DNA of 64,000 nt from assembly GCA_010909165.1 (NCBI GenBank), contig VJWM01000282.1:72001-136000 (forward strand), read 5' to 3'. Source of the DNA: Anthoceros angustus (lineage: Eukaryota > Plantae > Anthocerotophyta). The stretch's first letter is position 1. Each line of letters opens with the position of its first letter. This document shows positions 2,426 to 62,115 of this stretch, in pieces. The notes under the pieces were generated by a model. The model searched no databases. It saw only the letters and a list, made by a program, of their open reading frames with translations, and was not told where the DNA came from. The position numbers were made by a program, and so were the translations under genes.

Positions 2426-2429
2426 TCAA

Positions 2430-6194: not shown

Positions 6195-6365
6195 CCTCCA
6201 CGAGTCGGGCCTCGGGTCCGGGCCTCGGTCCGGTCTCAACTCGGGTCCGATCTTGAGTCGGTCTTATTCAGTCGGACCTCGGGGTCGGTCTCGTCTGATT
6301 CGGACCTCAGGTCCAGACCTTCTGAGTCCGGTCCTCAAGTCCGGACCCCCAACCCCGGACCGCCT
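6195..6365. repeat. Degenerate ~12-bp GC-rich tandem repeat (GGACCCGAGGCC-like) inside element B
   Basis: Recurrent CTCGGGTCCG / CTCGGTCCGG / GTCCGGACC units. Confidence 0.6.
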
Positions 6366-6471
6366 CTGTTGGGGCCGAGTCCTCTCCGGTCCCCTTCACG
6401 GCAGGTCGGTTGGTTTCCTCCTCCCCCCACCCCTTTGGGGCCCTCGTCCCTATCCTCCACTGGTTGCGGAC

Positions 6472-8365: not shown

Positions 8366-9118
8366 TCATCTTCCTCCGGGCTCGTTTGGCCTTAGGAGGT
8401 CGGGCCTCGCCTCTCGGCGCCCGCCTTCCATCTGCCTCCCGTGAGCCGCCAGCCCTTCTGCGGCCGCTCCTCTTCTCCCTCCTTGAGGAGGTTGAGGTGT
8501 CCCCACACATGGATGAGGAAGGGGCAGTCTTGTGGCGGGCCTGACTTCCATCCGTAGCTTCTGGCCTCTGGCCCGGTCCGGGCGAGGATGATATGCCCCC
8601 AGTCGGCCCGTTAGCGTGGGTGTCGGTGAGGCGGATAAATTGAAAGAATGGATCATTGCGAGAATGTCTGGTAAAGGTATCCTCAGAAAAGCTGTAATTC
8701 TCCGAATTGCCTCAGATTGATGTTGCAGAGCTTCAGAAATCACTGCAATTTTGTCAAGAGCTGCTTCAAGTCTGACGCCAATGTTTGAGGTTTTGCGCAA
8801 CACCAAGACCTGTAAATCCCTGAGTCGATCAGACTCCAGGGCAAGGTATGATTGGTTGAAGATGAGTTCCTCGTCGTCGTCGTCAGTTTGGTACACTCTT
8901 ACAATTCTTCGTAGGAGCCGGCGATCTGCGTGGCAGGAGCACAGACACGCGTCGAGCTCTGGGTGGGCGTTGGGGCCACGTGATTCAAGCTCTTCACCAC
9001 GGCCTTGTGGAGCCGTGCGTGGGCCAGATCTAGATGAGGTAGTATGTGAAACTGTAGAAAGCACGAGGCCTCGGCTTCTCCTACCGGTTGGCCTTGATCT
9101 GCGTTCAACTGGCGTCAT
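8366..9118 (-). CDS. First ORF downstream of the element B PBS (helical/coiled-coil, not gag-like)
   Basis: 250-aa ORF starting ~225 nt after the PBS, containing YQTDDDDEELIFNQSYLALESDRLRDLQVLVL...LEAALDKIAVISEALQHQSEAIRRITAFL. Confidence 0.55.
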   Translation of the reverse strand: MTPVERRSRPTGRRSRGLVLSTVSHTTSSRSGPRTAPQGRGEELESRGPNAHPELDACLCSCHADRRLLRRIVRVYQTDDDDEELIFNQSYLALESDRLRDLQVLVLRKTSNIGVRLEAALDKIAVISEALQHQSEAIRRITAFLRIPLPDILAMIHSFNLSASPTPTLTGRLGAYHPRPDRARGQKLRMEVRPATRLPLPHPCVGTPQPPQGGRRGAAAEGLAAHGRQMEGGRREARPDLLRPNEPGGR

Positions 9119-9343
9119 GTCGATGCTCTCTACGGACCGGACATAGACTTTCTAGTACAGCCCAATTTCTCTTATGCTAACCATCCTGTGCAGGTGATGG
9201 AGTAGGAGATTCAACATAGCTCGGAGTGCAATCTGGATGCACTCTAAATTGCGTTGAGAACCCTATTTCATCAGATGTACAGTATGCAACATAGAGATTA
9301 GATTAGAATGAATCTAGAGGCGGCATGGATCATAGAGCCTAGT

Positions 9344-9355
9344 GCTCTGATACCA
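9344..9355 (-). promoter_or_regulatory. Primer-binding site (tRNA-iMet) of element B
   Basis: Plus-strand GCTCTGATACCA is the reverse complement of TGGTATCAGAGC. Confidence 0.95.
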
Positions 9356-9524
9356 TGTGAATAAAGCGGAAGCTTGCTTACAAAACAAAAAGTTGTAAAC
9401 AAAATGAATTGATTAAATTACAAAACTTGTATGTGTTTAAATGCTTGTCCAAGTGACTATTACGTTAAACCTAAGACATATCAGTGCTCGGCGGTTAATG
9501 CGTTAGGGTAAATAACCCTTAACA
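9356..9524 (-). repeat. Element B 5' LTR, copy 1 (169 bp)
   Basis: TG...CA ends, adjacent PBS, second copy at 17570-17742. Confidence 0.9.
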
Positions 9525-10232
9525 CTGGTCAAGTGATAGCTTCATGCACCGCAGCTCCTGGGTGGAGCGAGGCTTACGGTGTCGGATCTGGAATCGATGC
9601 AAAACCTCGCAATATACTTGGCTTGATGAAGGCATAAGAAGAGTATCATCAAGATGGCGCTGAAGTTGAACTCTCAGGAAGCGGTGGTGCCCCAATATCC
9701 TTCATAATGAATTTTTGGTGCAACATGTCTTTGACCCATTATAACAAAACCGGATTGTTTGATGCGAGATGGCATAGTCAACATATAAGCGAGCAGCAGA
9801 TTTACCATCTGGGGTAGAAATATACGTTTGCATCACGGGATTACGAATCGAGCAATAGATTTAAGAGTACTTATCAATGGTCTTATACCATTCCCGTGTT
9901 ACTTCAAACCGTGAGATGGTCTTCTTGAGATGAGACCCAATCCAGTGCTCGGGGTCCAACAAAACCGCTGTGACATATAGATATCCTCTTCGATTCACCA
10001 TACGGAAGGCGGTACATCCATCCTGTCTGGAGATCCCGGGCATTGGCGATAGAGCAAGGATCATGCGGATGGGATTTAGCAGGCTGAAAGTTTCAGTGAA
10101 ATCTATTCCAGGAACCTGGGTAAAACCCATGGCAACAAGCCGAGACTTATATCTGGCAATCGTGCCCTGGGCATTCAACTTATGCTTGAAGACCCATTTA
10201 CAGCTTACAACCTTCCTATCCTTGGGCAAGGG
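9525..10232 (-). pseudogene. pol: Copia-1 RT segment (duplication unit 1)
   Basis: PLPKDRKVVSCKWVFKHKLNAQGTIARYKSRLVAMGFTQVPGIDFTETFS within ORF 9861-10286. Confidence 0.92.
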
Positions 10233-13200
10233 TGTGGTTTGGGAAAACCCGGGGCACTCCCGAGGTCCTCCCACTATAGCGGCCACACTTATCCCACTGT
10301 CGCTTCGTACGTTGGGTTTCGTCCCATGAGACTTGTGTGAAAATTCGAGATCTTGTGGTCACCGATCGCTACCTGCAGAGACACAACTCTCAGCCTTCTC
10401 AACGAGCAAGGCGCCCTCTACTCTCCCTCTTACGTGTTGCTTGCCTTCAGAAAATGACCAATCCTCGTACAGCGACAGCACAATTGAGTCACAACCTGGC
10501 GAGCCTATCACGGGCGAGGAGACCCCCAGTCCACACCGCGATTTCGTCCCTACTTCTAAGACCACTCTTCTCCACTCGAGGCGCTCTTTTTCTTGCGGTT
10601 GGGATTGCGTCCCTTAGGCTCACATGGCCTTCCACTAACACCTACACCTCTAATCCTCTACTCATCTTCTCATCTCCTCATCCTCTTCCTCCTATTCTAA
10701 CCTCGATTCGGGCTTCTTGGTTTCGACTCGCCCTTACGGCTGGCTGGTCGCCTCCACCCGGCAAGTTCTTCCTTGGGCGGTTGCTATGAGTTTGACACAC
10801 GGCGAGAACCTCCGAGTCTTTCACTGTAGTCTACCCTCAAGCCGAGTTCTGGGCATTTGCCACACACCCAAAGCAAAGCAATTTCACGGCAACCATTCAC
10901 AAGGGGGAACTCGTTTAGGCACTTGCGGAGCAAGTCCTCCACCAACACTCAGACCACTTCCTCTCTACGAATGTGTTGGCTCACGGTGACACGAAATTCC
11001 TCTGTAATGGCAAAGGACTCGATGGGCGTGACATGATACTTTACTTTGTGAAATCCTCCTCCTCTTATAGGAGGCCTTCCACATACAACCTCCCTTGGGT
11101 GACCCTCTGCGGTCACCTTTTCCAATTCTATTATTTCCTACATGACATTTATATACGGCACCTAATCTATTATCCTTGGTAAATTCTATTCTAGAACTTC
11201 ACCTAAGTCATCCTTGAAGGATGTCGATTACATCACTATCCTTCCTATTCTTCTACCTAGCATTTATGGCCCTTGACCATATCTAGTCTTCACCTATTGG
11301 GGTGAGCGTGTCGTGGTGGATTGGCTCCCTCGCCCTCCTTTTGCTCTTGCCCTTCCCAGCCTTTGTCGCTTCCTAATGTGTGGGGCAAGTACAATCTTGC
11401 CCTTCCTCCATCTCCGGGGGGCGCGATTCTCCCCTCAATCGCGCTTCGCACCTGGCGCCCCTTCCCTCGTCGCCTGTCGCCCGTTCATCGCACCCTACCG
11501 CGGTGTCGGCGGACTACTGGGTGACCTGTAGTGGTCCCTATCTCCTTCTTCCTTCCTCCTTGGTGAGGTTTCTTGAGTCGGGATCTTCATTGCTCTTTGC
11601 CTTCTTTGGATTTGTCCATACCTATCATAGAGCACCCTTCATCCCCATTGCCCATCGGATTTCTAATCTCTCGGGCCCTTTTGCGTTGGACTCCTCCTGG
11701 TCCCGGTTCCTCCCTTACTCGCGGGGGAAATTCCTCACCCTTCCTTCCTCGGCAGGTCGGACCCGTCCTTAGTCTCCTCCGGTGGGGTTGTCTCTCCCAC
11801 CCCAGTTTCCTCGGGGTGTTGCGGACCCCGGCCTTCATCTCCATCCGGGCCTTCCGGCGACTCCCACAGCTCGTGCGGGCACCCTGCCTACAGTAGTCGG
11901 GACTGGCGTGTGTGGCATCCCCGCAGTAGTCGGACTACCGTGGTAGGGTGGTCACCCGTGGTGGGGTGACCCCTGAGGCGGGTGTCCCTCTCCTTGCTCT
12001 CCGCCGTCTCCCACCCACTTGCCAGCTCCTCCTCGTCTCACTCCTCAGTTCCTCGGAGTCCATTTGATGGCCTCATCAAAATCGGAGGCCTCTGCACTGT
12101 TGCGGCTCCCGATCATCATCATGAGGACCCAATGTCCTCCTCTTGGCCAAGTAAGACTTCGTTGTTGGCCTTCAAGATCTGTTGTGGGTGAGCCCCAAGC
12201 TATGATATTGCATTTGGAGATCATCAATCTCGGCCACTCTCCATCTTGCACCTACCTTGTAGGCATCTCTTGCTGGTTAATTCTCCCACCTTCACATGGA
12301 GGTTACATTCTCCTCCCTCACTTCCTTTATGGTTGGCCAATTTTGCACGAAGGGCATAATCGCCAAAATCTTCTTCCTCACTACCGGCATGCACCACCTT
12401 CTTGTGGCGCTCCTCCTCCAGACCTCCTTGTTCCGGTCCTAATTCTTTGGCAAGCCCTCCTCTCTCTTTTGCGCTCCGCTCCAGCTCTTGGTCTTGTGCT
12501 TCTCCGCGCTCCTCCAAATTATCGGGTCCTTCTCAACTCCTCTCCCATATCCCGGATTTGATAGCTTGAGTAGCCATCACACACTCATGCGTCACTTCTT
12601 TGGATTTTCTCCCTTCCTAGTGCCTCGTTTTCTTCCTTTCTTGCTCTAATTGGGCAAAATGCTCTTCGCCTTTTGCCTCCAAGAATCCTTTTGGGTTGTT
12701 GCGAATGGCTCTTTCTTGAGTGACAACTTCCCTCGGGGCTTCTCCGCGCGTTCCAGGTCGGGGAGCTTCTCCTGACCTTTTCCTTGGCTGCCTTTTCATC
12801 GGACTCCATGGCCAATTGCCACCTTTCTTCCCCATGTCATTTCACTTCCTCTTGGCATGCCCACAAGGAGGCTGCTAGGTCCCTAGCCCCTTCAAATCCA
12901 CGGTGAGTGCTTCACAAGCACCCAGCAATTCTCCTAGGGGTCCTAATTCCACCCCTCTCTTCTTCAAATTTCCAGCTCTCACACTTTCGGGCCATCGGCC
13001 GGCGGGTCCCCTTCTCGCTCCATCCGCTCTCCCACAGTGCGATGGTGGCCGGCGCCTCGCGCGCACCTGTTCCTTCCCTTCCCTTCCCTTGCTGGGCGTG
13101 GTGCACGGCGGTGGGTGCTCCCCCCAGTGGTTGCCTACCTACCATGGTGGTGCCTACCGTGGTGCTACCACCCCAGGTGGGCGCCTCCCTAAGGGTGAGG

Positions 13201-15020
13201 CCGAGTGCCTCTCGTAGGCACAAGGAGATGGTGGGGACTCCCCACCCTCGGGGTCACACTCAGTGGTCCTCTCTCATAGACTACCACCATCCGGCCTTCC
13301 TTGCTTCTTGTTCTTCTCCTTGCTCTGTGGGAAAGATTCCCACTCGGCAACTTTGTTGCCTCCATCTTCCTCCTCTTGCTTCTAGCATGCTTGTGGAGGT
13401 CGACCTCCCCGTCTTCAATGCAAAGGCAAGGCCTTTCCAACCTCGGTGGAGTGGATGACCTCAAAGGGATGCCATGCATCTTCAAGCTCCTTGCTTGTGA
13501 AGTCCCTCGGTTTCCACAAATGCACCAAATAGGTGCTAAGGTAGCAGCCTTGGCCCTTCCTCATCCGAATTTGGCTTGAGGAGCTTCTCGGTGGTGGATG
13601 TAGGCCTCATACATGATAGTCCCCAATCGGCTTGGCTCCCATGGAAATCTTCCACAAAAGTTGGTCTTTGAAATAAGAGGTCGTTGGTAATTACCAACAA
13701 TCTTTGCGAAGAGCCTCCACTTGACTCCTTGATGCTCTCGGTCTTCCGACCATTCTTGGCGTGGGCCTTTTCACTCCTCCATCCATCATGTCGAGAACTC
13801 TGCGGGATGTCGGGAGGGCATCCTCTTCCCTCCATTCCTTTCGAGGCAATTCGAGCTCTTCCTCCCGGTCTTCACAGATGCTCCTTACGGTCCAGCAGTG
13901 AGGATCCGTCTAGCATTCCTTCCGTAGCGGCGGCGCTTCCGATTGATGGAGGTTGATGTAACACTCCTCAATCAATTCCAAATTGGTGTAGGCCCATTGG
14001 CCATCCTATGGATGTTCTCCTCCTCGCCTTGCGAAAATCAACCAAATCTCGGGGTTGAGCTGCCCAAAGCAAGTGAATTGGGGCATCACCTCACCTCCCC
14101 CTGCTCGCTTCTTTCCTTCCTCCTCGCGAGGAAGGTGGCCTTCCTTCCTTTCGCTCGAGGCATGGTGTTTTCCTCAAGTGCAAAGGAAGAGACTCTCCAA
14201 TTTGAGCAAACACCTCAGCACCTCTTCTCCTTCTCTGAGCAACCCCGACTCACACGTTAGGATCCCCCTCTCCCTTTCTTCTTCTCCTCCTCCTTGAGGC
14301 GCCCTCTTCACTCTCTCTCGCCTCTCCCTCTGCTCACCCTTCTCCAACTCTTCCTTCCGGTGTCTTCAGCTCTTGTGCTTCCGCTCCAGGCCTCTCCTCC
14401 ACCTCTTTCTCCTTCCTTTCTTCGGTCTCTGAGGGCTCCTCCTTGGTGCGCCGCTCCTTCTCGCCGCTTCTTCCTCTGGCGGCGATGGCGGCTTCCCTTC
14501 GCTTACGCTCCGACTCGATCCTCTTGGGTTGCGCTCGAAGAAGTTGGGCCCAAAGCGCACTTTGCCCTTTGGATGGCGCCACAGGGCACAACCCTAGATT
14601 GGTTCATCATTCCAAAATCCTAATTCTATAATACCTACCTTTCCTACTACCCTAATTAATTCTAATTACTCTATATATTTTCCCTATTGGTGAGCATATA
14701 TAGTGGATATCCCTCTATTCTAATTTCCTTTTTAGCGAGATTGTCGACCTACGCGGTAGTACCGCGTGCTCCTTTTCTCGGACGGCGTGGTGTGGCGACC
14801 CTGGTAGTGACCTACCAACCTTCGGACGCCCTCACCGCCTCAAATGCGGGGTCATTTGACCCGTTCTTCTTCAAATATCCTTCCTAACAATATCCTACTC
14901 GACTTCAAGATTCTCGAGAAGTTTTCTTGGCATGCTCCTCTTCAATCGTTCTTAGCCAAAAAATCAAACTTGTTGTCTGGCAGATTTAGATTTGGTTGCC
15001 CAAACTTTCTACGTTCCACA
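10233..15020. mobile_element. Element A copy 1: 4788-bp TG...CA unit (giant solo LTR or non-autonomous LTR-derived element)
   Basis: Starts TGTGG and ends GTTCCACA, with flanks AAGGG (10228-10232) and AAGGA. It splits the RT peptide NDTWELVP|LPKDRK. No internal terminal direct repeats were seen. Confidence 0.85.
12076..14163 (-). pseudogene. Element A internal ORF (~700 codons, frameshifted), N-terminal globular domain plus C-terminal coiled coil
   Basis: ATG CCT CGA at 14163 and stop after CRGLRF at ~12076. The homologous start and stop recur in copies 2 and 5, and the start in copy 4. Confidence 0.65.
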
Positions 15021-17047
15021 AAGGACCCACAGTTCCCAAGTATCGTTCTTTATCGAGGAATCGTACTAAATCATGATGGAAGGGATCAGCTCAATGCTCC
15101 TTGTCAGCTCTGATAACCTCTGTGTATGTCTGTGGGTTACGGTTTTAATGTAAGGAGGGCTATCGGCCAGAAAGGCTTAGGTTGTGGAAGGGTAACCCAG
15201 CTACGGGACGTCTGAAATCAATGGAAGAATAAGGGGGTTCTACCCTTCTTGCTTTGAGGTTCCTAATCTGGCCGAGGATATGACGCTCTACATGTGGCTT
15301 TCGGCCAACAAGTTTGTCGACAACTTTGTGGAAGTGACCGGGGCGAGGCCAGACGTAGTTTTTCATGTAAAGTGCGAATCGGTAGGAATGAAGCAGGAAA
15401 GATTATCTTCGACTAAATCATGATCTACCTCATCCTCTGCACAGGAAGATCCCGAACTTCGACTGTAACATCATCAATGTCGGAAGGAGGTAGATAAGCA
15501 TCCATCGTGGCGGTGGGGTACATGAGGCATTTGGGCGAGATCTTGCAGGGGTTACTGTGCGAGTTACCGCACGCGGCTCGCGGATCTTACGATAGGACCA
15601 TAATCCTAGAATGTCATCTTGGAAACTCTGTAGAATCGTCCAGATCTGTGAGGTCCACATGGGTGACAGTCTCTTGATTGTGTGACAGATGATCAAAATA
15701 TGGCAAACCCATGGGACACACAAGCTCCTTGAAGGTCACACTCGGCAAACAATCTTGTGTCAGATGAATGTGGATCCAAGTGGATCCAGCAACATGGGCT
15801 TTGGCCTCTTCACCCATATCCACAAAGATAAGTGGGCGAGCTCTGTCTTCTAATTTCCTTCTCTCTCTCATGAGGATGTGTCGTCTGTTGGAGAATCGAA
15901 GACAGTAAATTAAGCAATTTGGGCTTCTGCCAAATAACTTCAAGCGGGGTCTTCCATCCTTTGCGCTCGTGAGGAAATGTTAAGAATGTAATTCTTTGTA
16001 ACTCTGTTTGCCGATATACTTTGCTCGCCACGACCATTCTAGCATGCTCCTTGTCATGCCCAGCAGCGTCTGATTATAGCATTCGGCAACACCGTTCTGC
16101 TGCTGGGTATAAGGCACAATAAGCTGGCGTACAACACCATTGTCCAGCAAGAACTGGTTGAAGTAAGCATGTGTAAATTCTGTGCCATTGTCAGTTCGCA
16201 ACTGTTGGAGCAAGCATCCTGTTTGCCTCTGTGCCATGACTAGCCATTCCTGGAAGACCTCAAAGGTATCGGACTTTAAACGGATGGGGTAGGTCCAGGA
16301 GTATCTGCTAAAGTCATCAGTGATGGTAAGATAGTACAACGCACCACCAAGGGAAGGAACATGGATCTTGCCTGAAATATCTGCATGTACTAGTTCTAGT
16401 ATACTGCGATGCGATGGAGCAAGCTGACATGAAATGGAACCTCTTTACTGTTTGGCTATAACACATGCATCGCAAAGTGGCAGGTCTTTGAAACATTTAC
16501 GTAGGGGCTCTCTATAGCAACTTAGGTTCGACATTTTTATCAACTTATCACGATTAGCATGACCTAATCTAGCATGCCATAGACTAGCCTGGGCAGATTG
16601 TGACGACTGGACAGCATGCACGGACTCAGGAGGTATGCAGGTAAGATCAAGCTGGTACAAATCATGAACAAGATGTCCTTCGCGTGACTAGACTATCCCT
16701 CCTCTCTTCTTAAGCTCATGACTAGTAGAAGTGAAGATAAGGTCGTATTAGCGCAAGGACATCGGTGGCTAGCAGAAAGTAGGTGTTTGGCCATGAGTGG
16801 AGCGTGCGAGGACATTATCAAGGTGGAGAGACGATTGCCATTATGCAATCTAAAACGGCATGTGCCTGAGCCTGCAATCTAAAGACACATGCGTGTAAGT
16901 TCGTCCCCAACAACACCTTTGTCGGATGTGGTGAAGGCTGGTGACTAAGCAAATTCTTTGTGCGCCGTTAGATGTGGGAGGTGTGCCGGAATCTAAAAGT
17001 ACCATCACAGTGGGAAGGCAGAAGGCGAAGAAGATGCAAAACAAAGC
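15021..17047 (-). pseudogene. pol: Copia-1 protease, GAG-pre-integrase, integrase and linker (unit 1)
   Basis: LDSG (PR), SLWHARLGHAN, ORF 15980-16339 YYLTITDDFSRYSW...LRTDNGTEF...PYTQQQNGVAE, KLEDRARPLIFV, and DSLIKNDTWEL at the RT start. Confidence 0.95.
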
Positions 17048-17557
17048 TAATCAGGACTCCGGGGCAGGTATGATTGGTTGAAGATGAGTTCCTCGTCGTC
17101 GTCGTCAGTTTGGTACACTCTGCAATTCTTGGTAGGGCGGCGATGCGTGGCGTGAGCAGAGACAGCGTCGAGCTCTGGGTGGGCGTTGGGGCCACGTGAT
17201 TCAAGCTCTTCACCACGGCCTTGTGGAGCCGTGCGTGGGCCAGATCTAGATGAGGTAGTATGTGGGCGCCCAGAAGCACGAGCCTCGGCTTCTCCTACGG
17301 TTGGCGATCTGCGTTCCTTGACTGCGGCATGTCGATGCTCTCTGGACCGACATAGACTTTCTAGTACAGCCCAATTTCTCTTATGCTAACCATCCTGTGC
17401 AGGTGATGGAGTAGGAGATTCAACATAGCTCGGAGTGCAATCTGGATGCACTCTAAATTGCGTTGAGAACCCTATTTCATCAGATGTACAGTATGCAACA
17501 TAGAGATTAGATTAGAATGAATCTAAATAGAGAGCAGCATGGATCATAGAGCCTAGT

Positions 17558-17742
17558 GCTCTGATACCATGTGAATAAAGCGGAAGCTTGCTTACAAAAC
17601 AAAAAGTTGTAAACAAAATGAATTGATTAAATTACAAAACTTGTATGTGTTTAAATACTTATCCAAAGTGACTATTCGTTTAAACCTAAGACATATCAGG
17701 TATAAACCAGTTAATCTGTGTTAGGGTAAATAACCCTTAACA
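17558..17742 (-). repeat. Element B PBS (17558-17569) and LTR copy 2 (17570-17742)
   Basis: GCTCTGATACCA followed by TGTGAATAAAGC...CCCTTAACA, with the same RT junction CTGGTC as copy 1. Confidence 0.9.
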
Positions 17743-18484
17743 CTGGTCAAGTGATAGCTTCATGCCTGCAACTCCTGGAGTGGAGACAGGCTTGGCAGTG
17801 TCCAGATGGAATCGATGCAAAACCTCTGCAATATACTTGGCTTGATGAAGCATAAGAAGAGTATCATCAAGATGGCGCACAAGTTGAACTCCGAGAACGA
17901 AGGTGAGTGCCCCAATATCCTTCATATCGAATTTTTGGTGCAACATGTCTTTGACCCATTATAACAAACCCGGATTGTTTGATGCGAGGATGGCATAGTC
18001 AACATATAAAGCGAGAACGACGAATTTACCATCCTGGGAGTAGAAATATACGTTTGCATCACCAGGATTCTGAATGCAGCCAATAGATTTAAGGTACTTA
18101 TCAATGGTCTTATACCATTCCCGAGCTGACTGCTTCAAACCGTATATGGTCTTCTTGAGATGACAGACCCAATCCGGGTGCTCGGGGTCAACAAAACCTT
18201 CGGGCTGTGACATATAGATATCCTCTTCCAGTTCACCATACAGGAAGGCAGTACATACATCCATCTGCTGGAGATCCCAGGCATTGGCAGTAGCAAGAGC
18301 AAGGATCATGCGGATGGACTGAGTTTTTACAACAGGGCTGAAAGTTTCAGTGAAATCTATTCCAGGAACCTGGGTAAAACCCATGGCAACAAGCCGAGAC
18401 TTATATCTGGCAATCGTGCCCTGGGCATTCAACTTATGCTTGAAGACCCATTTACGACACAACCTTCCTATCCTTGGGCAAGGG
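17743..18484 (-). pseudogene. pol: Copia-1 RT segment (unit 2)
   Basis: KWVFKHK...QMDVCTAFLYGELEEDIYMSQPEGFVDPEHPDWVCHLKKTIYGLKQSAREWY...ALYVDY, then KFDMKDIGALTFVLG...KLSLDQ. Confidence 0.97.
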
Positions 18485-21400
18485 TGTGGTTTGGGAAAAC
18501 CGGGGCACTCCAGGGTCCTCCCACTATAAGCGCCACACTTATCCAGCCAAATGCGTTGGGTTTCGTCCCATGAGACTTGTGTGAAAGTTCGAGGCCTTGT
18601 GGTCATCGCTACTGAGACACAACTTCTCGACCTTCTCAGCGCAAGGCGCCCTCTACTCTCCCTCTTGGCACCGCTTGCCTTTGCTTGAAAATCGCCAATC
18701 CTCGACCTACAGCGACACAAAACAATTAGGTCACCTTGGCGAGGAGCCTATCAGGCGCCGGGGACCCCCAGTCCACACAGCGATTTCGTCCCTACTTCTA
18801 AGACCACTCTTCTCTCCACTCGGGGCGCTCTTTTACTTGCATTTGGGATTCGTCCCTTAGGCTCTGCACGTGGCCTTCCACTAACACCTACACCTCTAAT
18901 CCTCTACTCATCTTCTCATCTCCTCATCCTCTTCCTCCTATTCTAACCTCGATTCGGGCTTCTTGGTTTCGACTCGCCCTTACGGCTGGCACAGGGTCGC
19001 CTCCACCCGGCAAGTTCTTCCTTGGGCGGTTGCTATGAGTTTGACACAGACGGAGAACCTCCGAGTCTTTCCACAGTCTACCCTCAAGCCGAGTTCTGCA
19101 GGCATTTGCCACACACCCAAAGCAAAGCAATTTCACAACCATTCACAAGGGAGCAACTCGTTTAGGCACTTGCAGGAGCAAGTCCTCCACCAACACTCAC
19201 CACCGACTTCCTCTCTACCCGACTGCGTTGGCTCCACGGCCCGGCACGAAATTCCTCTGTAATGGCAAAGGACTCGATGGCGTGGGCGCAAGACATGATA
19301 CTTTACTTTGTGAAATCCTCCTCCTCTTATAGGAGGCCTTCCACATACAACCTCCCTTGGGTGACCCTCTGCGGTCACCTTTTCCAATATTCTATTATTT
19401 CCTACACTTGACATTTAATGGCACCTAAATCTATTATAATCCTTGGTAAATTCTATTCTAGCAACTTCACCTAAGTCATCCTTAAGGATGTCGGTCTACA
19501 TCACTGTCCTTCCTATTCTTCTACCTAGCATTTATGGTCCCTTGACCATTCTAGTCTTCACCTATTTGGGTGGTGACGTCGTGGTGGATTGGCTCCCTCG
19601 CCCTCCTTTTGCTCTTGCCTTCCCGGCCTTTGTCGCTTCCTAATGTGTGGGGCAAGTACAATCTTCCTTCCTCCATCTCGCAGGCGCAGATTCCTGCCCT
19701 CCGGCAATCGCGCCCCTCCCGCACCTGGCGCCCTTTTCTCCCCTCGTGGCCGCGCCACACCTACGCGGTGTCGGCGGACTACGGGTGACGACTTCTGGTA
19801 GTCGGTCCCTATCTCCTTCTTCTTCCTCCTCCGCGGTGAGGGTTTCTTGGTCAAGATCTTCCATTGCTCTTTGCCTTCTGTTTGATTTGTCCATACCTAT
19901 CATAGAGCACCCTTCATCCCCATTGCCCCACCATCGGATCTTCTAATCTCTCGGGCCCTTTTTGGACTCCTCCTCGGGTCCGGTTCCTCCCCTCGTGGGA
20001 TAGTTCCTCACCCTTCCTTCCTCCGTGGTCGGACCCGTCCTTAGTCTCCTCCGGTGGGGTTGTCTCTCCACCACCCAGTTCCTCTGGGGTATGTTGCGGA
20101 CCCCTTTTCATCTTGAGGCTTCTCGGCGACTCCCAACAGCTCGTGCCCGGGCCCTTGCCCTAGTGGCGGATCTGGGGCGTGTGTGGTCATCCCCCGGTGG
20201 TCAGCGGACTACCGTGGTGGGGTGGTCACCCCGTGGTAGGGTGACCCCTGAGGCGGGTGTCCCTCTCCTTGCTCTCGCGCCGTCTCCACCCACTCGGCTC
20301 CTCTCTCCGACTCCTCAGTTCCTCGGAGTCCATTTCGTGATGGCCTCATCAAAATCGGAGGCCTCTGCACTGTTGCGGCTCCTTGTCATCATCATGAGGA
20401 CCCAATGTCCTCCTCTTGGCCAAGCAAGACCGTTGTTGGCCTTCGATCTGTTGTGGAGGTGAGCCCCAAGTTGTGATGCATTTGGAGATCATCAATCTCA
20501 GTGGGCCACTCTCCATCTTCACACCTACCCTTGTAGGCATCTCTTGAGGTGGTCAATTCTCCCACCTTCACATGGAGGTTACATTCTCCTCCCTCACTTC
20601 CTTTTTGGTTGGCCAATTTTGAAGGGCATAATCAAAATGCTTCCTCACCACCGGCATCCTGCACCACCTTCTTGTGGCGCTCCTCCTCGGACCTCCTTTG
20701 TTCCAGTCCTAATTCTTGGCAAGCCCCTCCTTCTCGCTTGCCAAGCATTCTTCGCTCGGCTCCAATTCTTGGTCTTGTTCTCAGCTCCTCCTCCAAATTA
20801 TGGGTCCTTCTCAACTTCCTCTCCCATGTCCGGATTTGATGGCTTTAGCCATCACACTCATGTCGGCCACTTCTTTGGAGTTGCTTCTCCTTCCTAGTGC
20901 CTCGGCCCTTCCTTTCTTGCTCTAATTGGGCAAAATGCTCTTCGCCTTTTGCCTCCAATCCTTTTGGGTTGTTGCGAATGGCTCTTTCTTGACTGTGACA
21001 ACTTCCCTCAGGACCTTTTTATGTTCTAAGTCGTGTGGAGCTTCTCCTGACCTTTTCAACTTGGCTGCCTTTTCATCGGACTCCATGGCCTCCAATTGCC
21101 ACTTGGTCCTGCCTTTCTCCGGCCATGTCTTGAGGTTTCACTTCCTCTTGGCATGCCCACAAGGAGGCTGCTAGGTCCCTAGCCCCTTCAAATCCGGTGA
21201 GTGCTTCACAAGCACCCAGCAATTCTCCTAGGGTCCTAATTCCACCCCTCTGTCTTCTTCTTGGAAATTTCCAGCTCTCCCGCACTCGGGCCATCCCGGC
21301 CTTGGTCCCCCTCAGCTCCATCCGCTCTCCCAGGAGTGGGAGTGGTGCGGCGCGGCGCCTCATGTTCTCCTTCCTTCCCACCGCGTGGCTGCTGCTCGTG

Positions 21401-23448
21401 GGGTGCCCACCGTGAGGTGCTCCTCTGTGATGGTTGCCTACCTACCATGGTGGTGCCTACCTACCATGGTGGCGCCTGCCACCCTTGGGTGGCGCCTCCC
21501 TCGGTAGGGTGCGGGGTGCCTCTCTAGGCACAAGGAGATGGTGGGGACTCCCCCACTCTCGGGATCACCTCACAGTGGTCCTTCTCTCATAGACCACCAT
21601 TCGGCCTTCCTCGGCGGTTCTTGTTCTTCTCCCTTGCTCTGTGGGGAAAGATTCCCACTCCAACTTGTTGCCTCCACATCTTCTCCTCTTGCTTCTAGCA
21701 TGCTTGTGGAGTCGACCTCCCAGTCTTCCTTAATGCAAAGGCAAGGCCTTTCCAACCTTGGGCTGGAGGTGGATGACCTCAAAGGATGCCATGCATCTTC
21801 AAGCTCCTTGCTTGAGAAGTCCCTCGGTTTCCACAAATGCACCAAATAGGTGCTAAGGTAGAGGCCTTGGCCCTTCCTCATCCAATTTGGCTTGAGGAGC
21901 TTCTCGGTGGTGGATGTAGGCCTCATACATGATAGTCCCCAATCCGGCTTGGCTCCCATGGAAATCTTCCACAAAATTGGAGGAAGTTGGTGAAATAAGA
22001 GTCGTTGGTAATTACCAACCCCAGCACAATCTTTTGCGAAAGCCTCCACTTGACTCCTTGATGCTCTCGGTCTTCCGATTCTTGGCGTGGGCCTTCACTC
22101 CTCCATCCATCATGTCGAGGAACTCTGCGGGATATCGGAGGCATCCTCTTCCCTCCATTTGACCTTTCGAGCAGATTCGAGCTCTCTTCCTCCGGTCTCC
22201 ATACACACAGAATGCTCCTTACGGTCCGGCGGGGATCCGTTCGAGCATTCCTCGTGTAGCGGCAGGCTGCCTCGATTGATGGAGGTTGATGTAACACTCC
22301 TCAATCAATTCCAAATTGGTGTAGGCCCATTGGCGGCCATACACCCATCTAGTTGGATGTTCTCCTCCTCGCCTTGCCGAAAATCAACAAATCCACGGGG
22401 TTGAGCTGCCCGGCAAAGCAAGTGAATTGGGGCATCTCGACCTCACCCCTCACTGGCGCAGCCCCTGCTCTTCTTCCTTTCCTCCTCGCGAGGAAGAGCC
22501 CCTTGGCGGTGGCTCCTTCCCTTGCCTTCCTCCTCGAGGCATGGTGTTTTCCTCTTCAAGGAAGAGATTACTTCCCAATTTCTCAACCTCCTTCTCCCAA
22601 CTTCTCCTTCTGTCAGCTGAAACACCACACACGTTAGTCAGCGCTCCATTGCCAATTCTTCTCGCGCCTCCTTCAGGCGTCTTGATCTCTCTCCTCTCTC
22701 GCCTCAATTGCTCACCTCGGTGCTCCTTCCAACTTGCCTTCCTCGTGTCTCCGCTCTTCCTTCTTCAGCGCTCCGGAGCGCTCTCCTCACCTCTTCCTTC
22801 CTTTTCTTCCACTTCCTGCGTTCTTCCTCCTTCGCTCTCTCCTTCAGCGCGCCTTCCTTCCCTTGCTGGCGGCGGCGATGGCGATGGCGCTTCCTCCTTT
22901 CTTGCGCTTACGCTCCACGGCTCGATCTCTCTTCTCTTTCGAAGAGAAGTTGGCGCTTAAAACCACTTTGCCCTCCTTGGACGCCACGGAGGTTCACAAC
23001 CCTAGATTGGGTTCATCATTCCAAAATCCTAATTCTATCTAATTACCTATTTTCCTATTACTACCTCTAATTAATTCTAATTATCTATTTATATTTTCCC
23101 TATTGGTGAGCATATATAGTGGATATCCTCTATTCTAATTTCCTTTGGCGAGATTCGTCAACCTACGTGATGATCGCGACTTACGCGGTGATGCTTCCTT
23201 TTCTCGACCTACCGGTGGTGGCGACCCTCGGTGATGCGCCGACCCCTTTGCCCTCGCCCTCGTGCGGGGTCGTTTTGACCCGTTCTTCTTCTGGGATATC
23301 CTCTTCTTCCTAACAATATCCTACAACTCCGACTTCAAGATTCTCGAGAAAATTTCTTGGCATGCTCCTCTTCAATCGTTCTAGCCAAAAAAAATCAAAC
23401 TTGTTTGTCCTTTGGCGATTTGAACTGTTGCCCAAACTTCGTTCCACA
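18485..23448. mobile_element. Element A copy 2 (4964 bp) with perfect AAGGG TSD
   Basis: AAGGG|TGTGGTTTGGG...GTTCCACA|AAGGG (18480-18484 and 23449-23453). Confidence 0.9.
20349..22542 (-). pseudogene. Element A internal ORF, copy 2
   Basis: Pieces in the ORF track (21923-22297, 21570-22049, 21073-21381, 20632-20814, 20349-20540) join into one colinear peptide. Confidence 0.65.
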
Positions 23449-25509
23449 AAGGGACCGCTTCCCAAGTATCGTTCTTTATCAAGGAATCTGCACAAGTCCT
23501 TGATGGAAGGATCAATGCTCCTTGTCCAAGTGATAGCCTCTGTGTATGTCTTGGGTTACGGTTTAATGTAAGGAGGGCTATCCATGAAGGCTTAGGTTGT
23601 GGAAGGGTAACCACCGGGGGCGTCTGAAATCAATGGAAGAATAAGGTTCTACCCGCTTGAGGTTCCTAATCTGTTGAGGATAACGGCACTACATGTGGCT
23701 CGACAACAAGTTTGTCGGCCACTTTGTCGTCGGGGGCGAGGCCGGAGTAGTTTTCATGTGAGTTTGAATCGGTGAGAATGAGCAGAAAGATTATCTTCGA
23801 CTAAATCATGATCTACCTCATCCTCTGCGGCGGGAGGATCCCGAACTTGGTAACTCATCAGCGTCGGAAGGAGGTAAATAAGCATCCATCGGCGGGGGCT
23901 GCCAGGCGGTGGGCGGGTATTGTTGCAGTGAGTTGCACTCCTTGGATGCCAAATAGGACCATATCCTAGAATGTCATCTTGGAAACTCGAGAATCGTCCG
24001 GATCACATGAGGTCCACATGGGTGGCGATCTCTTGATTGTGTGACGGATGATCAAAATATGGCCCGGGGACACAAGCTCCTTGAAGGTCCTCACGGCAAA
24101 CAATCTTTGTATGAGTAAGTGGATCCAACAACATAGGCTTTGGCCTCTTCACCATATCCCACAAAGATAAGTGGGCAACTCATCTTCTAATTTCCTTCTC
24201 ACTCTCCGAGGATGTGTCGTCTAGGAATCGAAGACTCGTAAGTGTATGGCTGGGCTTCTGCGCCAAATAACTTCAAGCGGGGTCTTCCCATCACTGCGCT
24301 CGTGAGAAAGCTTTATTAAGAATGTAAGTTCTTTGTAACTCTTGCTGATATACTTGCTCATCGTACGACCATTCTAATGCTCCATGTCCTTGCCGTACGT
24401 TATAGCGATTCGGCAACAGATTACTGCTGCTGGGTATAAGGCACAATATGGCGTACAACACCGTCCGGCAGAGCGGTTGAAGTAAGCATGTGTAATTCAT
24501 GCCATTGTCGTTATAGCGGAGCAAGCATCCTGTTTGCCCTACATGCCATGACTAGCCATTCACGGAAGACCTCAAAGGTATCGGACTTTAAGCGGATGGG
24601 GTAGGTCGGGGAGTATACTGCTAAAGTCATCGATGATGGTAGATAGTACGCACCACCAAGGGAAGGAACATGGATCTTGCAGAAATATACGCATGTACTA
24701 GTTCTAGTATACTGCGATGCACGATGGGCAATGACCTGAGGAAATGGAACCTCTTTACGTTTGGCTATAACACATGCGCATGAGTGGCAGTCTTTGAAAC
24801 ATTTAGGTAGGGGCTCTCTGTAGCAACTTAGGTTCGACATTTTTATCAACTTATCACGATTAGCATGACCTAATCTAGCATGCCATAGACTAGCAGACTA
24901 TCTTGTGGGCATTGTAGGGCGGCATGCGGACTCGGAGGTATGCGAGGTAAGATCAAGGCGGGTACAAATCATGAACAAGATGTCCTTTCCGCGACTAGAC
25001 TATCCCTCCTCTCTTCTTAAGCTCATCGAGCTAGTAGAAGTGAAGATAAGGTCGTGTTAAGGACATCGGTGGCTAACGGTAGGTGTTTGGCCATGAGTGG
25101 AGCGTGCGAGGGACATTATCAAGGTGGAGGGCGATTGCCATTATGCAATCTAAAGCGGCATGCGGGCACACGCAATCTAAAGACACATGTGTATGGATTC
25201 GTCCCCAACAACACCTTATGGGATGTGGTGAAGGCTGTGTTAGTAAGCAGGTTCGCCGTTACAGATGTGGGAGGTGCACGGAATCTAAGTACCATACGTA
25301 TTGGGAAGGCAGAGGCGAAGATGCAAAACAAAGCCGTCATCACAACTGGAGGTTTGATAGCAGATGAAGATGCCTTGGCGACAGAGTGGGCCTCAGCCCG
25401 CTTGGGCTTCTCGACTTTTACGGCCAAGCCTTCTTTTTCGGCCGATCTCTCCCGGTGGCCTGGATGCCACCAATTGCGAGAGCCGATCCGCTTTGTGGAG
25501 GCAGAATGA
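23449..25509 (-). pseudogene. pol: Copia-1 gag C-terminus (eroded zinc knuckle), protease, integrase, linker (unit 2)
   Basis: HPGHRER knuckle remnant at ~25450, then PR, VCHARLGHANRDKLIKM, and YPIRLKSDTFEVF. Confidence 0.9.
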
Positions 25510-33247: not shown

Positions 33248-33261
33248 CTCCCACTTGTTGA

Positions 33262-50798: not shown

Positions 50799-53700
50799 TG
50801 TGGGAGGGAAAACCCGGGGCTTCAAGGCTTCCCCTCTAGCGCCACACTTATCCTAATCGCCGCTCAGACGTTGGGTTTCATTCCCATGAGACGTGTGAAA
50901 GTTCGAGGTCTTGTGATAACCGATCGCCACACGCAGACACACTTCTCACCTTCTAACAAGCAAGGCGCCTCTACTCTCCTCTACAGCACTGCACCACTTG
51001 ACGCCTCAAAATCACCAATCCTCGACCTACAACGACACACAATTGCAGTGTCCCGCCTTAGCAATGAGGAGCCTATCACGGCGCCTGTGGACCCCACCAC
51101 ACCGCACCTCGTCCCTACTTCTAAGACCACTCTTCCACCTGTGGAGCGCCTTTACTTGCAGATTTGGGATTCCCTTAGGCTCGCCTGTGGCCTTCCACTA
51201 ACACCTACACTCTAATCCTCTACTCATCTTCTCATCCTCTTCCTCCTATTCTAACCTCGATTCGGGCTTCTTGGCTTCGGCTCGCCCTTCGCTGGCTGCA
51301 CAGGTCGGCCTCCACCAGCAAGTTCTTCCTTGGGCGGTTGCTATGAGTTTGACACAGACGTGAACCTCCGGTCTTTCACGTAGTCTACCCTCAAGCCGAG
51401 TTCACAGGCATTGCCACACACCCAAAGCAATTTCACGGCAACCATTCACAAGCAACTCGTTTAGGCACTTGCGGTGAGCAAGTCCTCCACCAACACTCAG
51501 GCCATGACTTCCTCTCTACGACTGCGTTGGCTCACGGTACGAAATTCCTTTACAAGCAAAGGACTCGGTATGGGCGCAAGGCGTGATACTTTGTGAAATC
51601 CTCCTCCTCTTATAGGAGGCCTTCCCTCAACCTCCCTTGGGTGACCCTCTGCGGTCACCTTTTCCAATATTCTATTATTTCCTACATGACATTTAATAGG
51701 CTCTAAGTCTCTTGTATGATCCTTGGTAAATTCTATTCTAGTAACTTCACCTAATCATCCTTAAGGATGTCTCTACACCACCTATCCTTCCGTTCCCCAA
51801 AGCTCATTTATGGTCATTGACCATTCTTAGTCCTTATCTTCTTTGGGGTGGTGACAGCGTGCCTTGATTGGCTCCCTCGCCCTCCTTTTGCTCTGTCCCT
51901 TCCCGGATCTTGTCGTCTTCCTATGTGGGGCAAGTACAATCTGCCCCTTCCTCCACTCCAGCGCCCTCTCATCATTGGCAATCGCCCCCCCCTCGCGCTG
52001 GCGCCCTTTTCTCCTTCCGCGCTGGTCGCGCCATCACCCCGCGGTAGTGGCGGACTACGGGGTGACGACTACCATGGTGATGCGTACCTATCTCCTTCTT
52101 CTCCTTCCTCCTCGGTGATGGCTCCACGGGTTGAGATCCTTTTGCTCCTTTCCTTGTTTGGTTTGTCCATACCTATCATGGAGCATGTCTTCAAAGATCT
52201 TCTCCCATTCGACCGATGTTGTACTAACTCCTGGGCCTTCTTGCGTTGGTCTCCTCTCTCACTCCTCCCTTATCGTGGGGTGAGAACTTCTCACCCTCCC
52301 CTTCCTCGTCTGGGACCCCGTCCTTGTCTCCGGTGGGGTTGTCTCTCACCACCTCCTCCTCCGGGTGTCCTGGACCCCTCCTTCATCCTCGGCCGCCTCG
52401 GGGCGGCTCCTCCCAGCTCGCGGCACCTACCTACCAGTCTGGACTACGGCGTGGGGTGGACTACTGATGATCGGGACTCGTGGTAGGGTGACCCCAGGCG
52501 GTGGGTCCCCCTCCTTGCTCTCACGCCATCTTCCTCTTGGCGCTTGCGCTCTCCTCATCTCCTCCTCAGTTCCTCGGAGTCCATGTGATGGCCTCATCAA
52601 AATCGGGGCCTCACTGCACTGCTGACTCCTTCTGTCATCATCATGAGGACCCAATGTCCTCCTCTTGGCCAAGCCAATCTCATTGTTGGCCTTCAAAATT
52701 CTATTGTGGAGTGGGCCCCTATGTAATCTGCATTTGGAGATCATCAATCTCAGTGGGCCACTCTCCATCCTCACACCTACCCTTGTAGGCGTCCCTTGAG
52801 GTGGTCAACCTCCCACCTTGACATGGAGGTCACATTCTCCTCCTTGCTTCCTCATGGTTGGCCAATTTGCTTGAAGGGCATAATCCGCCAAAATCTTCTC
52901 TTCTCACCACCAGCATTCATGCACCACTTCTTGTGGTACTCCTCCTCTGGACCTCCTTCCTCCCGGTCCAAGTTGTTGGGCAAGCCCTCCTTTTGCACAG
53001 CCCTTCTCGCTCCGGCTCCAATTCTTTGGTCTTGAGTTTGCTCGGCGCTTCTCTCCAAATTATCGGGTTTTCTCAATTCCTCATGTCCGGATTTTGATGG
53101 CTTGGGTGGCCATCACACACTCTTCGTCCATTTGTTGGACCGCTACCTTCTCCCTTCCCAAAGCCTCCATTTTGCCCTTCCGCTCTTGCTCCAATTGGGC
53201 AAAATGTTCCTCCGCCTTCTGTTTCCACGAATCTTGTTGGGTTGTTGCCCGAATGGCTCTCTCCTCGGTTTGTGACAACCTCCCCTCTAGGACCTTCTAC
53301 GCTCTCCGCTGGTCCACAAGATCCCGCTGGAGTTTCTCCACAGCCTTCTCCAACTTGGCTGGCTTCTCATCGGACTCCATGGCCTCCAGCTGCCACTTGG
53401 TCCCTGCCCTCCTTTCGGTCATCTCTTGGGCCTTGACTTCCTCCTGACATGCCCACAAAGAGGCTGCTAGTTCCCTAGCCCCCTTCAAATCCAGTGCTTC
53501 ACAAGCACTTCGGCAATCTCTAGGGCCCAAATTTTGCCCTATGGCTTCTTCTTTGAAATCTTGGGCTCCCTTGCGCCCGGGCCGCCATGCAGTGGGGTCC
53601 CCTCACGTCGCCCCATCCGCTCTCCCCAGTAGCGGAGATGGCGGCTGGGCGCCTTGGCGCCTCATGTTTCTCCTTCCCCTTCTGGCGTAGGGCTGCTCTG

Positions 53701-54305
53701 GCGTGGGTGCCTGAGTGGTAGGCTGCTCCCCTGATGGTCAGCCTACCTACCATGGTGGTGGCCTGATGCTGCACTTGGGTGGGCGCCTCTCTGGGTAGGG
53801 CATAGGCCTCTTCCTAGGCACCACGAGATGGTGGGGACTCCACCACGGGGCATCACCCTCTGTGGTCCCCTCTCATAGACCACCACGGCCCTCCTGGCCG
53901 GATCTTGTTCCTCTTCTTCTCCTCGTTGCTCTTGGGAAGGAAAGATTTCCCATTAAGCAACCTGTTGCCTCACTCCTCACTTGCCTGTGCGCTTGTAGTC
54001 GCCCCATTGTTTTCCTCAAAGCAAAAGGCAAGGGCCTTTCCAAGCTTGGCTGGAGGTGGATTATTTCCGATGGATGCCAAGCATCCTCCAGCTCCTTGCT
54101 GGTGAGGAGCCCCTCGGTCTCCCACAAGTGCACCAAGTAGGTGCTAAGATAAAAGGGCTTGGCCCTTCCTCATCCACCGAATTCGGCCGAAGGAGCTTTT
54201 CCCTGTGGTGTATGTAAGCCTCATACATGATCGTCCCCAATCCTTGCTCCTCTTGAAATCTTCCCAAGCGGAAGTGGTCTTTGGTAAGAGGTTGGAATTC
54301 ACCAA
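50799..54305. mobile_element. Element A copy 3 (left ~3.5 kb, right-truncated)
   Basis: Starts TGTGGGAGGGAAAACCCGGGG and is colinear with 10233-13700. Confidence 0.85.
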
Positions 54306-54307
54306 TC

Positions 54308-57300: not shown

Positions 57301-57690
57301 GGGGCTCACCTCCATAATAGATTTTGAAGGCCAACAATGAGTCTTTGCTTAAGAGGAGGACATTGGGTCCTCATGATGATGAAGAAGGAGCTGCACAGTG
57401 TACCAGCCCTGTGACGAGGCTACAAGTGACATGGACCCGAGAACTGGGGAGTTGGAGGCGGGAGGATGCGCGCCAAGGTGAGAGCAAGGAGGGGGGACCT
57501 CATGGGGGTCACCCTACCATAGAGCCTACCAGTAGTCCGCCGATCACTGCAGGCCAACACCACGCCCAGAGTCCGACTACGGGGTAGCAACACCGCGCTG
57601 TCTGAGGAGTCGGGGCCCAGAGGCCGGGCCTAGGAGGAGCCGGGCCTAGTGGCACACCCGAATGGAAGAGGAGGTGGAGAAACAGTCCAC
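54308..57690. mobile_element. Element A copy 4, inverted and truncated at both ends
   Basis: Reverse complement of ~11780-14945. It lacks the terminal ~80 bp, so TGTGGAACG is absent. Confidence 0.85.
55247..57420 (+). pseudogene. Element A internal ORF, copy 4 (best-preserved N-terminus, ORF 55247-55672)
   Basis: MPRAGKGKAKEPPGKGSTSRGGKG...MPQFTCFAGQLNPRDLVDFRQWAEEENIQLGWVYGRQWAYTN..., followed by EEHFAQLEQERRAK coiled-coil pieces. Confidence 0.7.
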
Positions 57691-60600: not shown

Positions 60601-62115
60601 TCGGTCCTTCCTCATCCACCGAATTTGGCTTGAGGAGCTTCTCTGGTGGATGTACGCTTCATACATGATAGTCCCCAATCCGCTTGGCTCCCATGGAAAT
60701 CTTCCACAAAATTGGAGGAAGTTTGAATAAGAAGTGCGTTGGTAATTTACCAACCCCAAAGACAATCTTTGCGAAGAGCCTCCACTTCAGCTCCTTGATG
60801 CTCTCGCTTCCACCATTCTTGGCGTGGGCCTTCACCTCCATCCATCATGTCAAGGAACTGAATATCGAGAGGGCGTCCTCTTCCTCCATTTGACCTTTCG
60901 AGGAGAGCACCCGAGCTTTCTCCCGCCTTCCATACACTAATACTTACTCCAACAATGGGATCTCGAGCATTCCTTTCCAAGGCGGCAAGCCCGATTGATG
61001 GAGGTTGATGTAACACCTCAATCAAATTGGTGTAGGCCCATTGGCCATACACCCATCCCAATTGGATATTTCTCCTCCGCCCGCCGAAATCCACTAAATC
61101 TCGGGGTTGAGCCCGCAAAACAAGTGAATTGGGGCATCAAGCATTTCTCTCACTCCTGGCCGCTTTCTTTCCTTTCCTCCTCGCGAGGAAGAGCCCTTGC
61201 GCGGCTCCTTCCCTTGCCTTCCCCGAGGCATGGCACCTTCCTTACTCCAAAGGAAGGAATTACTTCCAATTGCGAGCTCCAAGCTTCACTCCCAAACACT
61301 CCTTCCTTGTCAGGGAGCAACACCCAACCCGAGGCACAAGTACGCTAGCTCGGCCAACCTCCGTCACGCCAATTTCTTCGCGATTTCTCTCCTGTGGCGG
61401 CAGTGGATCCTCCTTCTCCTTCACTTCTCACGCCTTGCTCCTGCCGCCCTCCAACCGCCGCTGCCTCCATGCTTTTCCCGCGCCGAGCACAGAAGACTTC
61501 TGCCTCTCCGCCCGCTCCACGCCTTCTCCTTCTCCTTCTTCCGCTGCCGCCTTCCTCGGGCGATGGCGGCGACGGGTGATGGCACCTCCTTCCTTCTCCT
61601 CTTACGCCCACCCGCCTCCAAGTGAAGTCTCGCCTCGGGAAGTTGCCCAAGCACTTTGCTCTTTGGATGCCACCAGGCCCACAACCCTAGATTGTTCATC
61701 ATTCCAAAATCCTAATCTCTAAATACCTATTTTCCTATCCGCTATTAAATTAATTACTCTAATATATTTATCCTATCGATGAGCATATATAGTGGATATC
61801 CCCTTATTCTAATTGCTTTTAGCCGAGATTCGGCCACCACTGTAGTCCGCCACCATCGACCGCTTCCTTCTCACATGGCGTGTGGCACTACGGCGTAGTC
61901 CGCACCACCAACCTTTGACGCCCCGCCTCGTCTGGGTCGTTTCAATTCGCTTTTCCCCCGGGATATCCTCTTCGTCTTCCTAACAATATCCTACAACTCA
62001 GCTAAGATTTCAAAATTTTCCTCGCATGTCCTCTTCAATCGCTTTAGCCAAAAAAATCAAACTTGTTCATCTTCGGGCTCTTTTGGGCTGGTTGCCCAAA
62101 CTTTTACGTTCCACA
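57697..62115. mobile_element. Element A copy 5 (missing the first ~430 bp, intact right end)
   Basis: Colinear with 10665-15020 and ends TTTTACGTTCCACA. Internal ORF runs from 61231 to ~59057 on the minus strand. Confidence 0.85.

Follow-up and report, generated by a model that had tools for sequence, protein, structure and literature searches.

Structure and surroundings of the repeated unit

The stretch of DNA analysed here (the window) comprises 64,000 nucleotides of Anthoceros angustus contig VJWM01000282.1 (assembly GCA_010909165.1, positions 72,001 to 136,000 of the forward strand). It contains a repeated unit of nearly 5 kb, bounded by TGTGG and CCACA, that carries its own gene on the minus strand (Table 1). 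An earlier note, made from the sequence of the window, had described this unit as flanked by an exact 5-bp target-site duplication (TSD), free of an internal long terminal repeat (LTR) pair, gag and pol, and present in five copies. It had proposed either a giant LTR that encodes a protein or a new class of gene-carrying non-autonomous element.

The described ends were found at 10233-15020 and again in copy 2. The duplication is exact around copy 2 (AAGGG at 18480-18484 and 23449-23453) but is matched at only four of five positions around copy 1, where the right-hand target-site copy (15021-15025) reads AAGGA. TG...CA termini, as in a solo LTR, are present at both ends of copies 1 and 2, at the left end of copy 3 and at the right end of copy 5, and a TSD within the 4-6 bp of solo LTRs lies directly at both unit ends, representing one insertion event. 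The insertion interrupts the polyprotein frame of a Ty1/copia element on the minus strand, just before the reverse transcriptase (RT) domain. The split frame reads ...NDTWEL on the right flank and PLPKDRKVVSCKWVF on the left, and Pfam recognises RVT_2 (E 6e-48) as well as rve (E 1e-12) in the sequence on either side. The site shared by copies 1 and 2 is a clean integrase-type insertion.

Comparison of the first with the last 600 bases of the unit gave a best local score of 20-25, against a mean of 21 and a maximum of 31 for shuffled sequence, and the inverted match at the unit ends extends over only about 5-14 bases. Since no direct repeat rises above the shuffled level and the inverted match is this short, the unit is neither a short-LTR deletion derivative, which the earlier note had named as the outcome that would count against a giant LTR, nor a transposon with long inverted ends. 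LARD and TRIM derivatives (large retrotransposon derivatives and terminal-repeat retrotransposons in miniature) were ruled out as well, no LTR pair being present at the two ends. Pfam scans of unit pieces found no gag or pol, in agreement with the original description, and the unit contains no primer-binding site (PBS), polypurine tract (PPT) or LTR pair that could permit reverse transcription. Rfam and tRNA scans of the whole window returned no match. That the unit is an LTR is, in our judgement, probable.

The termini also bear on descent from a cut-and-paste DNA transposon, of Ginger type or another, in which the transposase was lost while an accessory gene was retained, a descent that we regard as very improbable. 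Some Ginger and GingerRoot members do have TG...CA ends and a similar size (PMC6839031), and a short imperfect inverted match lies near the unit ends. The TSD here is nevertheless 5 bp long, as compared to 4 or 6 bp for Ginger1/2 and 6 bp for GingerRoot, the inverted ends span 5-14 rather than 100-150 bases (same source), and the Pfam scans gave no match to a transposase, integrase-like or other.

Table 1 Features of the unit, its gene and its copies (positions in the window; a dot marks features without an assigned strand)
Feature	Position	Strand	Description
Unit copy 1, putative solo LTR	10233..15020	.	TGTGG...CCACA ends; 4788 bases
Target-site copy left of copy 1	10228..10232	+	AAGGG
Main gene	12050..14163	-	about 700 codons; ATG 14163; many frameshifts in copy 1
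Basic N-terminal arm of gene	about 14163-14090	-	
Globular block of gene	about 14085-13450	-	
Low-complexity linker of gene	13450-12900	-	
Long helical and conserved C-terminal blocks of gene	12900-12050	-	
Possible low-complexity gene extension	11330..12050	-	gene of up to about 945 codons; periodicity 0.35 of 48 pairs, p=0.56; 4 synonymous, 1 non-synonymous, too few to judge
Possible short upstream ORF (open reading frame), E/K/R-rich	14250..14612	-	periodicity 0.37 of 43, p=0.40; 7 synonymous, 3 non-synonymous
Two-way TATA-like box, at 14697	14693..14708	.	CATATATAG; in 4/4 copies covering the site
Second TATA-like box, at 11069	11058..11073	- only	CCTATAAGAGG; in 4/4 copies covering the site
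Tandem duplication of copia segment carrying the unit	8828..25334	.	8828-17047 and 17050-25334; 8.2 kb; 83% identity
Unit copy 2	18485..23448	.	4964 bases; TGTGG...CCACA ends
Unit copy 3	50799..54320	.	unit bases 9-3549; left end intact, cut at unit base about 3550
Unit copy 4	54330..57600	.	inverted; unit bases 1674-4862, neither terminus; gene on + strand from ATG 55247
Unit copy 5	57699..62115	.	unit bases 434-4964; about 430 bases missing at left, right end intact (TTCCACA)
Gag-like frameshifted stretch	62600..63990	+	right of copy 5; CX2C..HX4C knuckle at 63742 broken by a short deletion; motifs found by eye

Two loci in the window

The five copies reduce to two loci. Copies 1 and 2 occupy the same site within a tandem duplication and thus record a single insertion, and copies 3 to 5 are truncated pieces of one cluster. 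Aligned over 8637 columns, the two halves of the tandem show 292 gap events, yet contain exact runs of 100-177 bases. In ungapped unit cores, copies 1 and 2 differ by 3.1% with a transition/transversion ratio of 0.93, as compared to ratios of 1.1-4.7 between different family members. The junction at 17047 has no cover in the contigs of run X1, which are described below. The repeat may be a recent duplication, or one locus that was assembled twice. The duplicated segment itself is a head-to-tail copia unit; on the minus strand it has a PBS of tRNA-Met type (9344-9355), which a short LTR adjoins.

The members of the second cluster abut one another and lack termini at the inner joints, and the outer flanks of the cluster (ATGTC and GTTGT) do not match as a TSD. 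Copies 3, 4 and 5 differ by 8-14% from one another and from copies 1 and 2 in ungapped cores, and so represent different family members. The cluster may be a real rearrangement or a misjoin. At its joints (54320-54330 and 57600-57700) three different family members meet with no termini between them, and one of the three is inverted; if real, such joints would point to the repair of breaks between giant LTRs. Copy 3 has a copia gag piece (Retrotran_gag_2, E 3e-11) close by on its left, on the minus strand at 49612-50259. Among named relatives of the copia RT, identity reaches at most about 55%, as compared to 79-80% for its closest relatives overall.

A gene under purifying selection

The gene of roughly 700 residues that had been read in the unit coincides with the frame supported here. 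All five copies carry part or whole of it, and the four that cover the start share the ATG (14163, 22542, 55247 and 61231 in copies 1, 2, 4 and 5). Codon structure was assessed by a frame-free test on the distances between mismatches in ungapped blocks, using nine of the ten copy pairs (pair 1-2 omitted) and 2000 permutations. The share of mismatch pairs at a distance divisible by three was 0.75 of 204 for the globular block (p=0.0005), 0.63 of 201 for the helical block (p=0.0005) and 0.45 of 86 for the linker (p=0.049), p-values that are optimistic since the same copies recur across pairs. For one of the two end zones this share was 0.43 of 44, with p=0.16, and for the other 0.37 of 43, with p=0.40.

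Substitutions between copies were not neutral; neutral patterns were part of what the earlier note had said would count against its reading. With the phase of each block chosen on its other half, pN/pS (the ratio of non-synonymous to synonymous differences) was 0.08 on the gene strand of the globular block (35 synonymous, 11 non-synonymous; 0.24 on the opposite strand) and 0.17 on that of the helical block (38 synonymous, 24 non-synonymous; 0.33 on the opposite strand), counts in which pairs share copies and copies 1 and 2 enter as two. Between copies 3 and 5, a single block of 29 codons held 12 synonymous and three other changes. Judged by these substitution patterns, the gene is real and under purifying selection between family members. 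Such selection shows the gene to have been of importance to the lineage that replicates, and says nothing on expression by solo copies.

The described layout of a globular block followed by a long coiled coil was reproduced in part by structure models. A 141-residue piece of the C-terminal block of copy 3, in which a single stop was entered as X, was modelled as three long helices at a mean predicted local distance difference test score (pLDDT) of 86, which fits a coiled coil but is short of proof. The model of the globular block reached a mean pLDDT of 47 and gave no usable fold.

Family abundance and the nature of the frameshifts

Run X1 provided 2810 contigs, among 592,621, that could be placed on positions 10000-17400, 1151 of them at at least 99%. 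Summed depth ran into the thousands in most bins of the unit, a quantity that is not copy number, and fell to 0-8 on the flanks, with sharp edges at both unit termini. Cover was slight or absent in three bins of the unit, gaps that prove nothing. X1 may come from a relative of the window's organism, but the unit family is clearly abundant in it, with the same boundaries as the window copy. In run X2 one contig matched over 46 bases, which is no evidence of expression.

These boundaries would also be expected if the unit stood alone as a non-autonomous element, dependent on the enzymes of another element for copying and integration in trans, and were not the LTR of anything longer. The sole complete insertion, moreover, has its TSD directly at both ends and holds no gag or pol. 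A solo LTR would look identical, however, and the unit offers no internal LTR pair, PBS or PPT from which it could be reverse transcribed, while a flank shared beyond its left end (see below) suggests a longer parent. We consider a stand-alone unit improbable, and the related proposal of a new class of gene-carrying element, the second option of the earlier note, gained no positive support.

The gene is frameshifted in every copy, as had been seen before, but the shifts probably reflect sequencing errors in large part, and not decay. Private deletions outnumber private insertions in all five copies. In comparisons with X1, 11 of the 12 indel rows examined (of 75) were letters without a counterpart in the window. 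Within the gene, 44-87% of X1 depth had an extra base at each of four sites (12247, 13427, 13513 and 13794). This is the indel pattern of under-polished long reads, which suggests that many of the frameshifts are errors; at any one site, private mutation and error are indistinguishable.

The noise of the window, the frameshifts in all copies, the lack of a homologue and the possible misassembly of copies 1-2 and of the cluster of copies 3-5 would all suit a frame that arose by chance on a strand rich in purines, or a unit that is an artefact of assembly. Such a reading is largely refuted and hardly tenable against the codon periodicity and the bias to synonymous change seen when different members are compared, the shared start codon, the clean TSD within a coding frame and the independent X1 contigs with the same boundaries.

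Direction of the element

Within the LTR reading, a gene antisense to the element is favoured over a sense gene. The two-way TATA-like box stands about 320 bases from the right end of the unit and about 530 bases ahead of the gene ATG on the other strand, and the plus strand beyond it is 60-62% pyrimidine. This box is a candidate shared promoter, from which element RNA could run rightwards and the gene leftwards. The gag-like stretch, which begins about 500-800 bases to the right of the intact right end of copy 5, with no TSD there, is a candidate start of the interior of the parent element.

Eight X1 contigs share AAAA just outside the left end of the unit (as read from 6 of 20 loose-end rows), which suggests a common interior neighbour in a longer parent, either the tail of a PPT or a T spacer before a PBS. 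A T spacer before the PBS occurs in some Athila/Tat elements.

The unit could instead be the solo LTR of an element that runs on the minus strand, a possible if doubtful alternative. The gene would then be a sense ORF in a 4-kb U3 region with its own promoter, as is the sag gene of mouse mammary tumour virus (MMTV), and R and U5 would make up the left 800 bases. The second TATA-like box, shared by all four copies that cover it and situated in the best-conserved non-coding zone (about 5% mismatch as compared to 7-16% elsewhere), is a candidate LTR promoter for such an element, and the AAAA outside the left end would read CA-TTTT on the minus strand, like the Athila/Tat spacer. This direction is at odds with the gag-like stretch, which is on the plus strand to the right of copy 5, with the composition after the left box, where there is no pyrimidine patch (47-51%), and with the left flank of copy 3, at which no PBS was seen.

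Searches for relatives

Since the gene queries were of small size (Pfam pieces of 45-174 residues) and in part out of frame, blank homologue searches are weak evidence. A 174-residue gene piece found no relative among longer proteins (0 of 368 candidates), nor did a profile of eight gene pieces (0 of 7986 scored), and the same profile, from which three gene fragments had been excluded, had no match among 1.84 billion representatives. Searches of the ESM Atlas with gene pieces returned no relative, and Pfam gave no match for 11 gene pieces or for a set of 22. Sub-threshold Pfam matches on helical pieces, to DUF7417 (E 8e-5) and Lzipper-MIP1 (E 0.007), fell under the cut-offs and were not used. 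A profile search of the PDB produced three matches at chance level (E 0.2-0.3). The DNA pattern of the unit was not matched in metagenome contigs, and the one locus that a protein scan of 40 stretches pointed to there was dropped as a chance match on the strand opposite bacterial genes.

Other features of the window

The region at 5600-8820 is GC-rich and has ORF pieces on the minus strand, one of which (7131-6475, 219 residues) is rich in helix and gave no Pfam match. The region shows no convincing translated match to the unit and could be another element, unrelated to the first, that carries an accessory gene. A stretch with a DUF7869 piece (4883-5419, E 3e-33) is flanked by the two copies of an exact repeat about 60 bases long (4002-4068 and 5608-5668), and tandem arrays of 55-60-base units at 1874-2396 adjoin transposase-like broken frames at 1-1300. 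A young copia element with 250-base LTRs that are 98.8% identical occupies 32999-39753 and is bracketed by a 1.3-kb direct repeat (30299-31566 and 39752-41043; 89% identical). A 1.3-kb fold-back at 44868-46159, built of short inverted and tandem units of the GGCCAAGGAC type, resembles joined DNA-transposon ends or a miniature inverted-repeat transposable element (MITE).

Interpretation and significance

The reading we prefer, at slightly better than even confidence for the whole of it, is that the unit is a likely solo LTR of a high-copy plant Ty3/gypsy element, and that it carries a selected gene of about 700 codons, likely antisense to gag-pol, for what is likely a nuclear, self-associating accessory protein. 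A giant protein-coding LTR, the first option of the earlier note, is the best fit to the ends, the TSD, the missing inner pair, a length in the Ogre range and the selected gene, but the sense orientation of MMTV sag is less likely than an antisense one.

Several observations weigh against this solo-LTR reading. No direct-repeat pair of units around gag-pol is present in the 64-kb window, and metagenome contigs yielded no related locus. No clear PBS follows the right end of copy 5 (GTTGTAGAG...), and no PPT was seen beside the copies in the window. The gag-like stretch has no match in Pfam, the Atlas or the PDB and could belong to another element; a loosened form of its knuckle pattern arises in 0.8% of shuffles of the region and matches four other places in the window. 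The shared AAAA flank is four letters only, to which a T-rich spacer before a PBS of the opposite direction is an equal fit, and the minus-strand TATA-like box points the same way. No intact gene copy is found among the five of the window. The non-coding left control zone gave pN/pS values of 0.42 and 1.21, both from few changes (5 and 7 for the lower), and the selection estimates draw repeatedly on the same copies. Finally, no gene piece matched the plant mobile domain (PMD), Transposase_28, Athila ORF-1 or any relative, so the functional analogy drawn below rests on layout only.

Under the solo-LTR reading, the copia gene would have received a full element, of whose two LTRs recombination would have left one behind; the copia segment with its solo LTR would later have been duplicated in tandem, or was assembled twice. 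The two-way box near the right end would drive element RNA rightwards and the gene mRNA leftwards. With promoter, gene and 3' end all within the LTR, each round of reverse transcription would copy all of them to both LTRs, and every solo LTR would retain them. By analogy with PMD proteins, Athila ORF1 and VANC, the basic arm may direct the protein into the nucleus and onto nucleic acid, the globular block may recognise the element and the long helix may form oligomers. The same analogy would have the protein act in trans and maintain expression of the family against host silencing, which is the most speculative part.

Carried further, this analogy would have a plant retrotransposon bring a complete anti-silencing gene of 700 codons, together with its own promoter, into its LTR. 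Solo-LTR formation, the host's main removal route, would then leave thousands of intact expression units that supply the factor in trans and would no longer disarm the family, and the protein would define an unnamed family of transposon proteins. We regard this extension as rather unlikely.

If the preferred solo-LTR reading is true, LTRs, which are usually treated as non-coding control regions, can hold a long selected gene, and solo LTRs would not be the dead ends they are taken for. Every full element would carry the gene twice, and solo-LTR formation would not remove it, which alters how a family can persist. The annotation of such units as solo LTRs would hide real protein families, and the unit would offer a high-copy system for testing what the accessory ORFs of plant retrotransposons do.

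Comparison with known systems

In size the unit resembles the LTRs of Ogre/Tat and other giant-LTR non-chromoviruses of the Ty3/gypsy group, in which LTRs reach about 5 kb (PMC6317226) and span 1.9-6.5 kb in Ogre (PMC6431247), and it shares with them a 5-bp TSD and the occurrence of extra ORFs in the lineage. As these sources describe such elements, and unlike here, extra ORFs lie on the 5' or the 3' side of gag-pol and the LTRs count as non-coding (PMC6317226, PMC6431247). The window stops short of any pol of the candidate parent, and hence of an RT or integrase by which to place its lineage.

Antisense extra ORFs of plant Ty3/gypsy elements are a further close parallel. Grande gene23 has its own promoter and a nuclear product (PMC7264820), and DNA binding is predicted for the TRP28 ORFs of Retand (PMC11963269). 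Like these and those of RIRE2 and PvRetro13 (PMC7264820, PMC11963269), the gene described here is a conserved extra gene in the copies, probably antisense and probably with its own promoter, and it likewise combines a globular block with a long SMC-like helix of no known function. The ORFs of that class (aORF-3R) have their place after pol and ahead of the 3' LTR and disappear on solo-LTR formation, whereas the present gene lies wholly inside a TSD-flanked unit. It also differs in that the pieces scanned gave no Transposase_28 match.

A motif spacing like that of the predicted product occurs in unnamed bryophyte transposon proteins. With the PMD, Athila ORF-1 and VANC accessory proteins the predicted product would share a globular domain joined to coiled-coil oligomers (PMC13547354, PMC6317226), a likeness of layout without a sequence or structure match. 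Coiled-coil oligomers are predicted for proteins with an Athila domain and for VANC proteins, and VANC is an anti-silencing factor (PMC13547354).

For a protein gene within an LTR, MMTV sag/naf is the parallel: it lies in U3, has its own U3 promoter and is present in both LTRs and in solo LTRs (PMC9412291). MMTV, however, is a retrovirus, and its gene is in sense orientation and encodes a superantigen that has no sequence link to the present gene, which is longer and has a long helical block. It was the only case of a gene inside an LTR in the literature searched, which lacked most subscription papers. The parts are known separately, as 5-kb LTRs, as extra ORFs and as MMTV sag.

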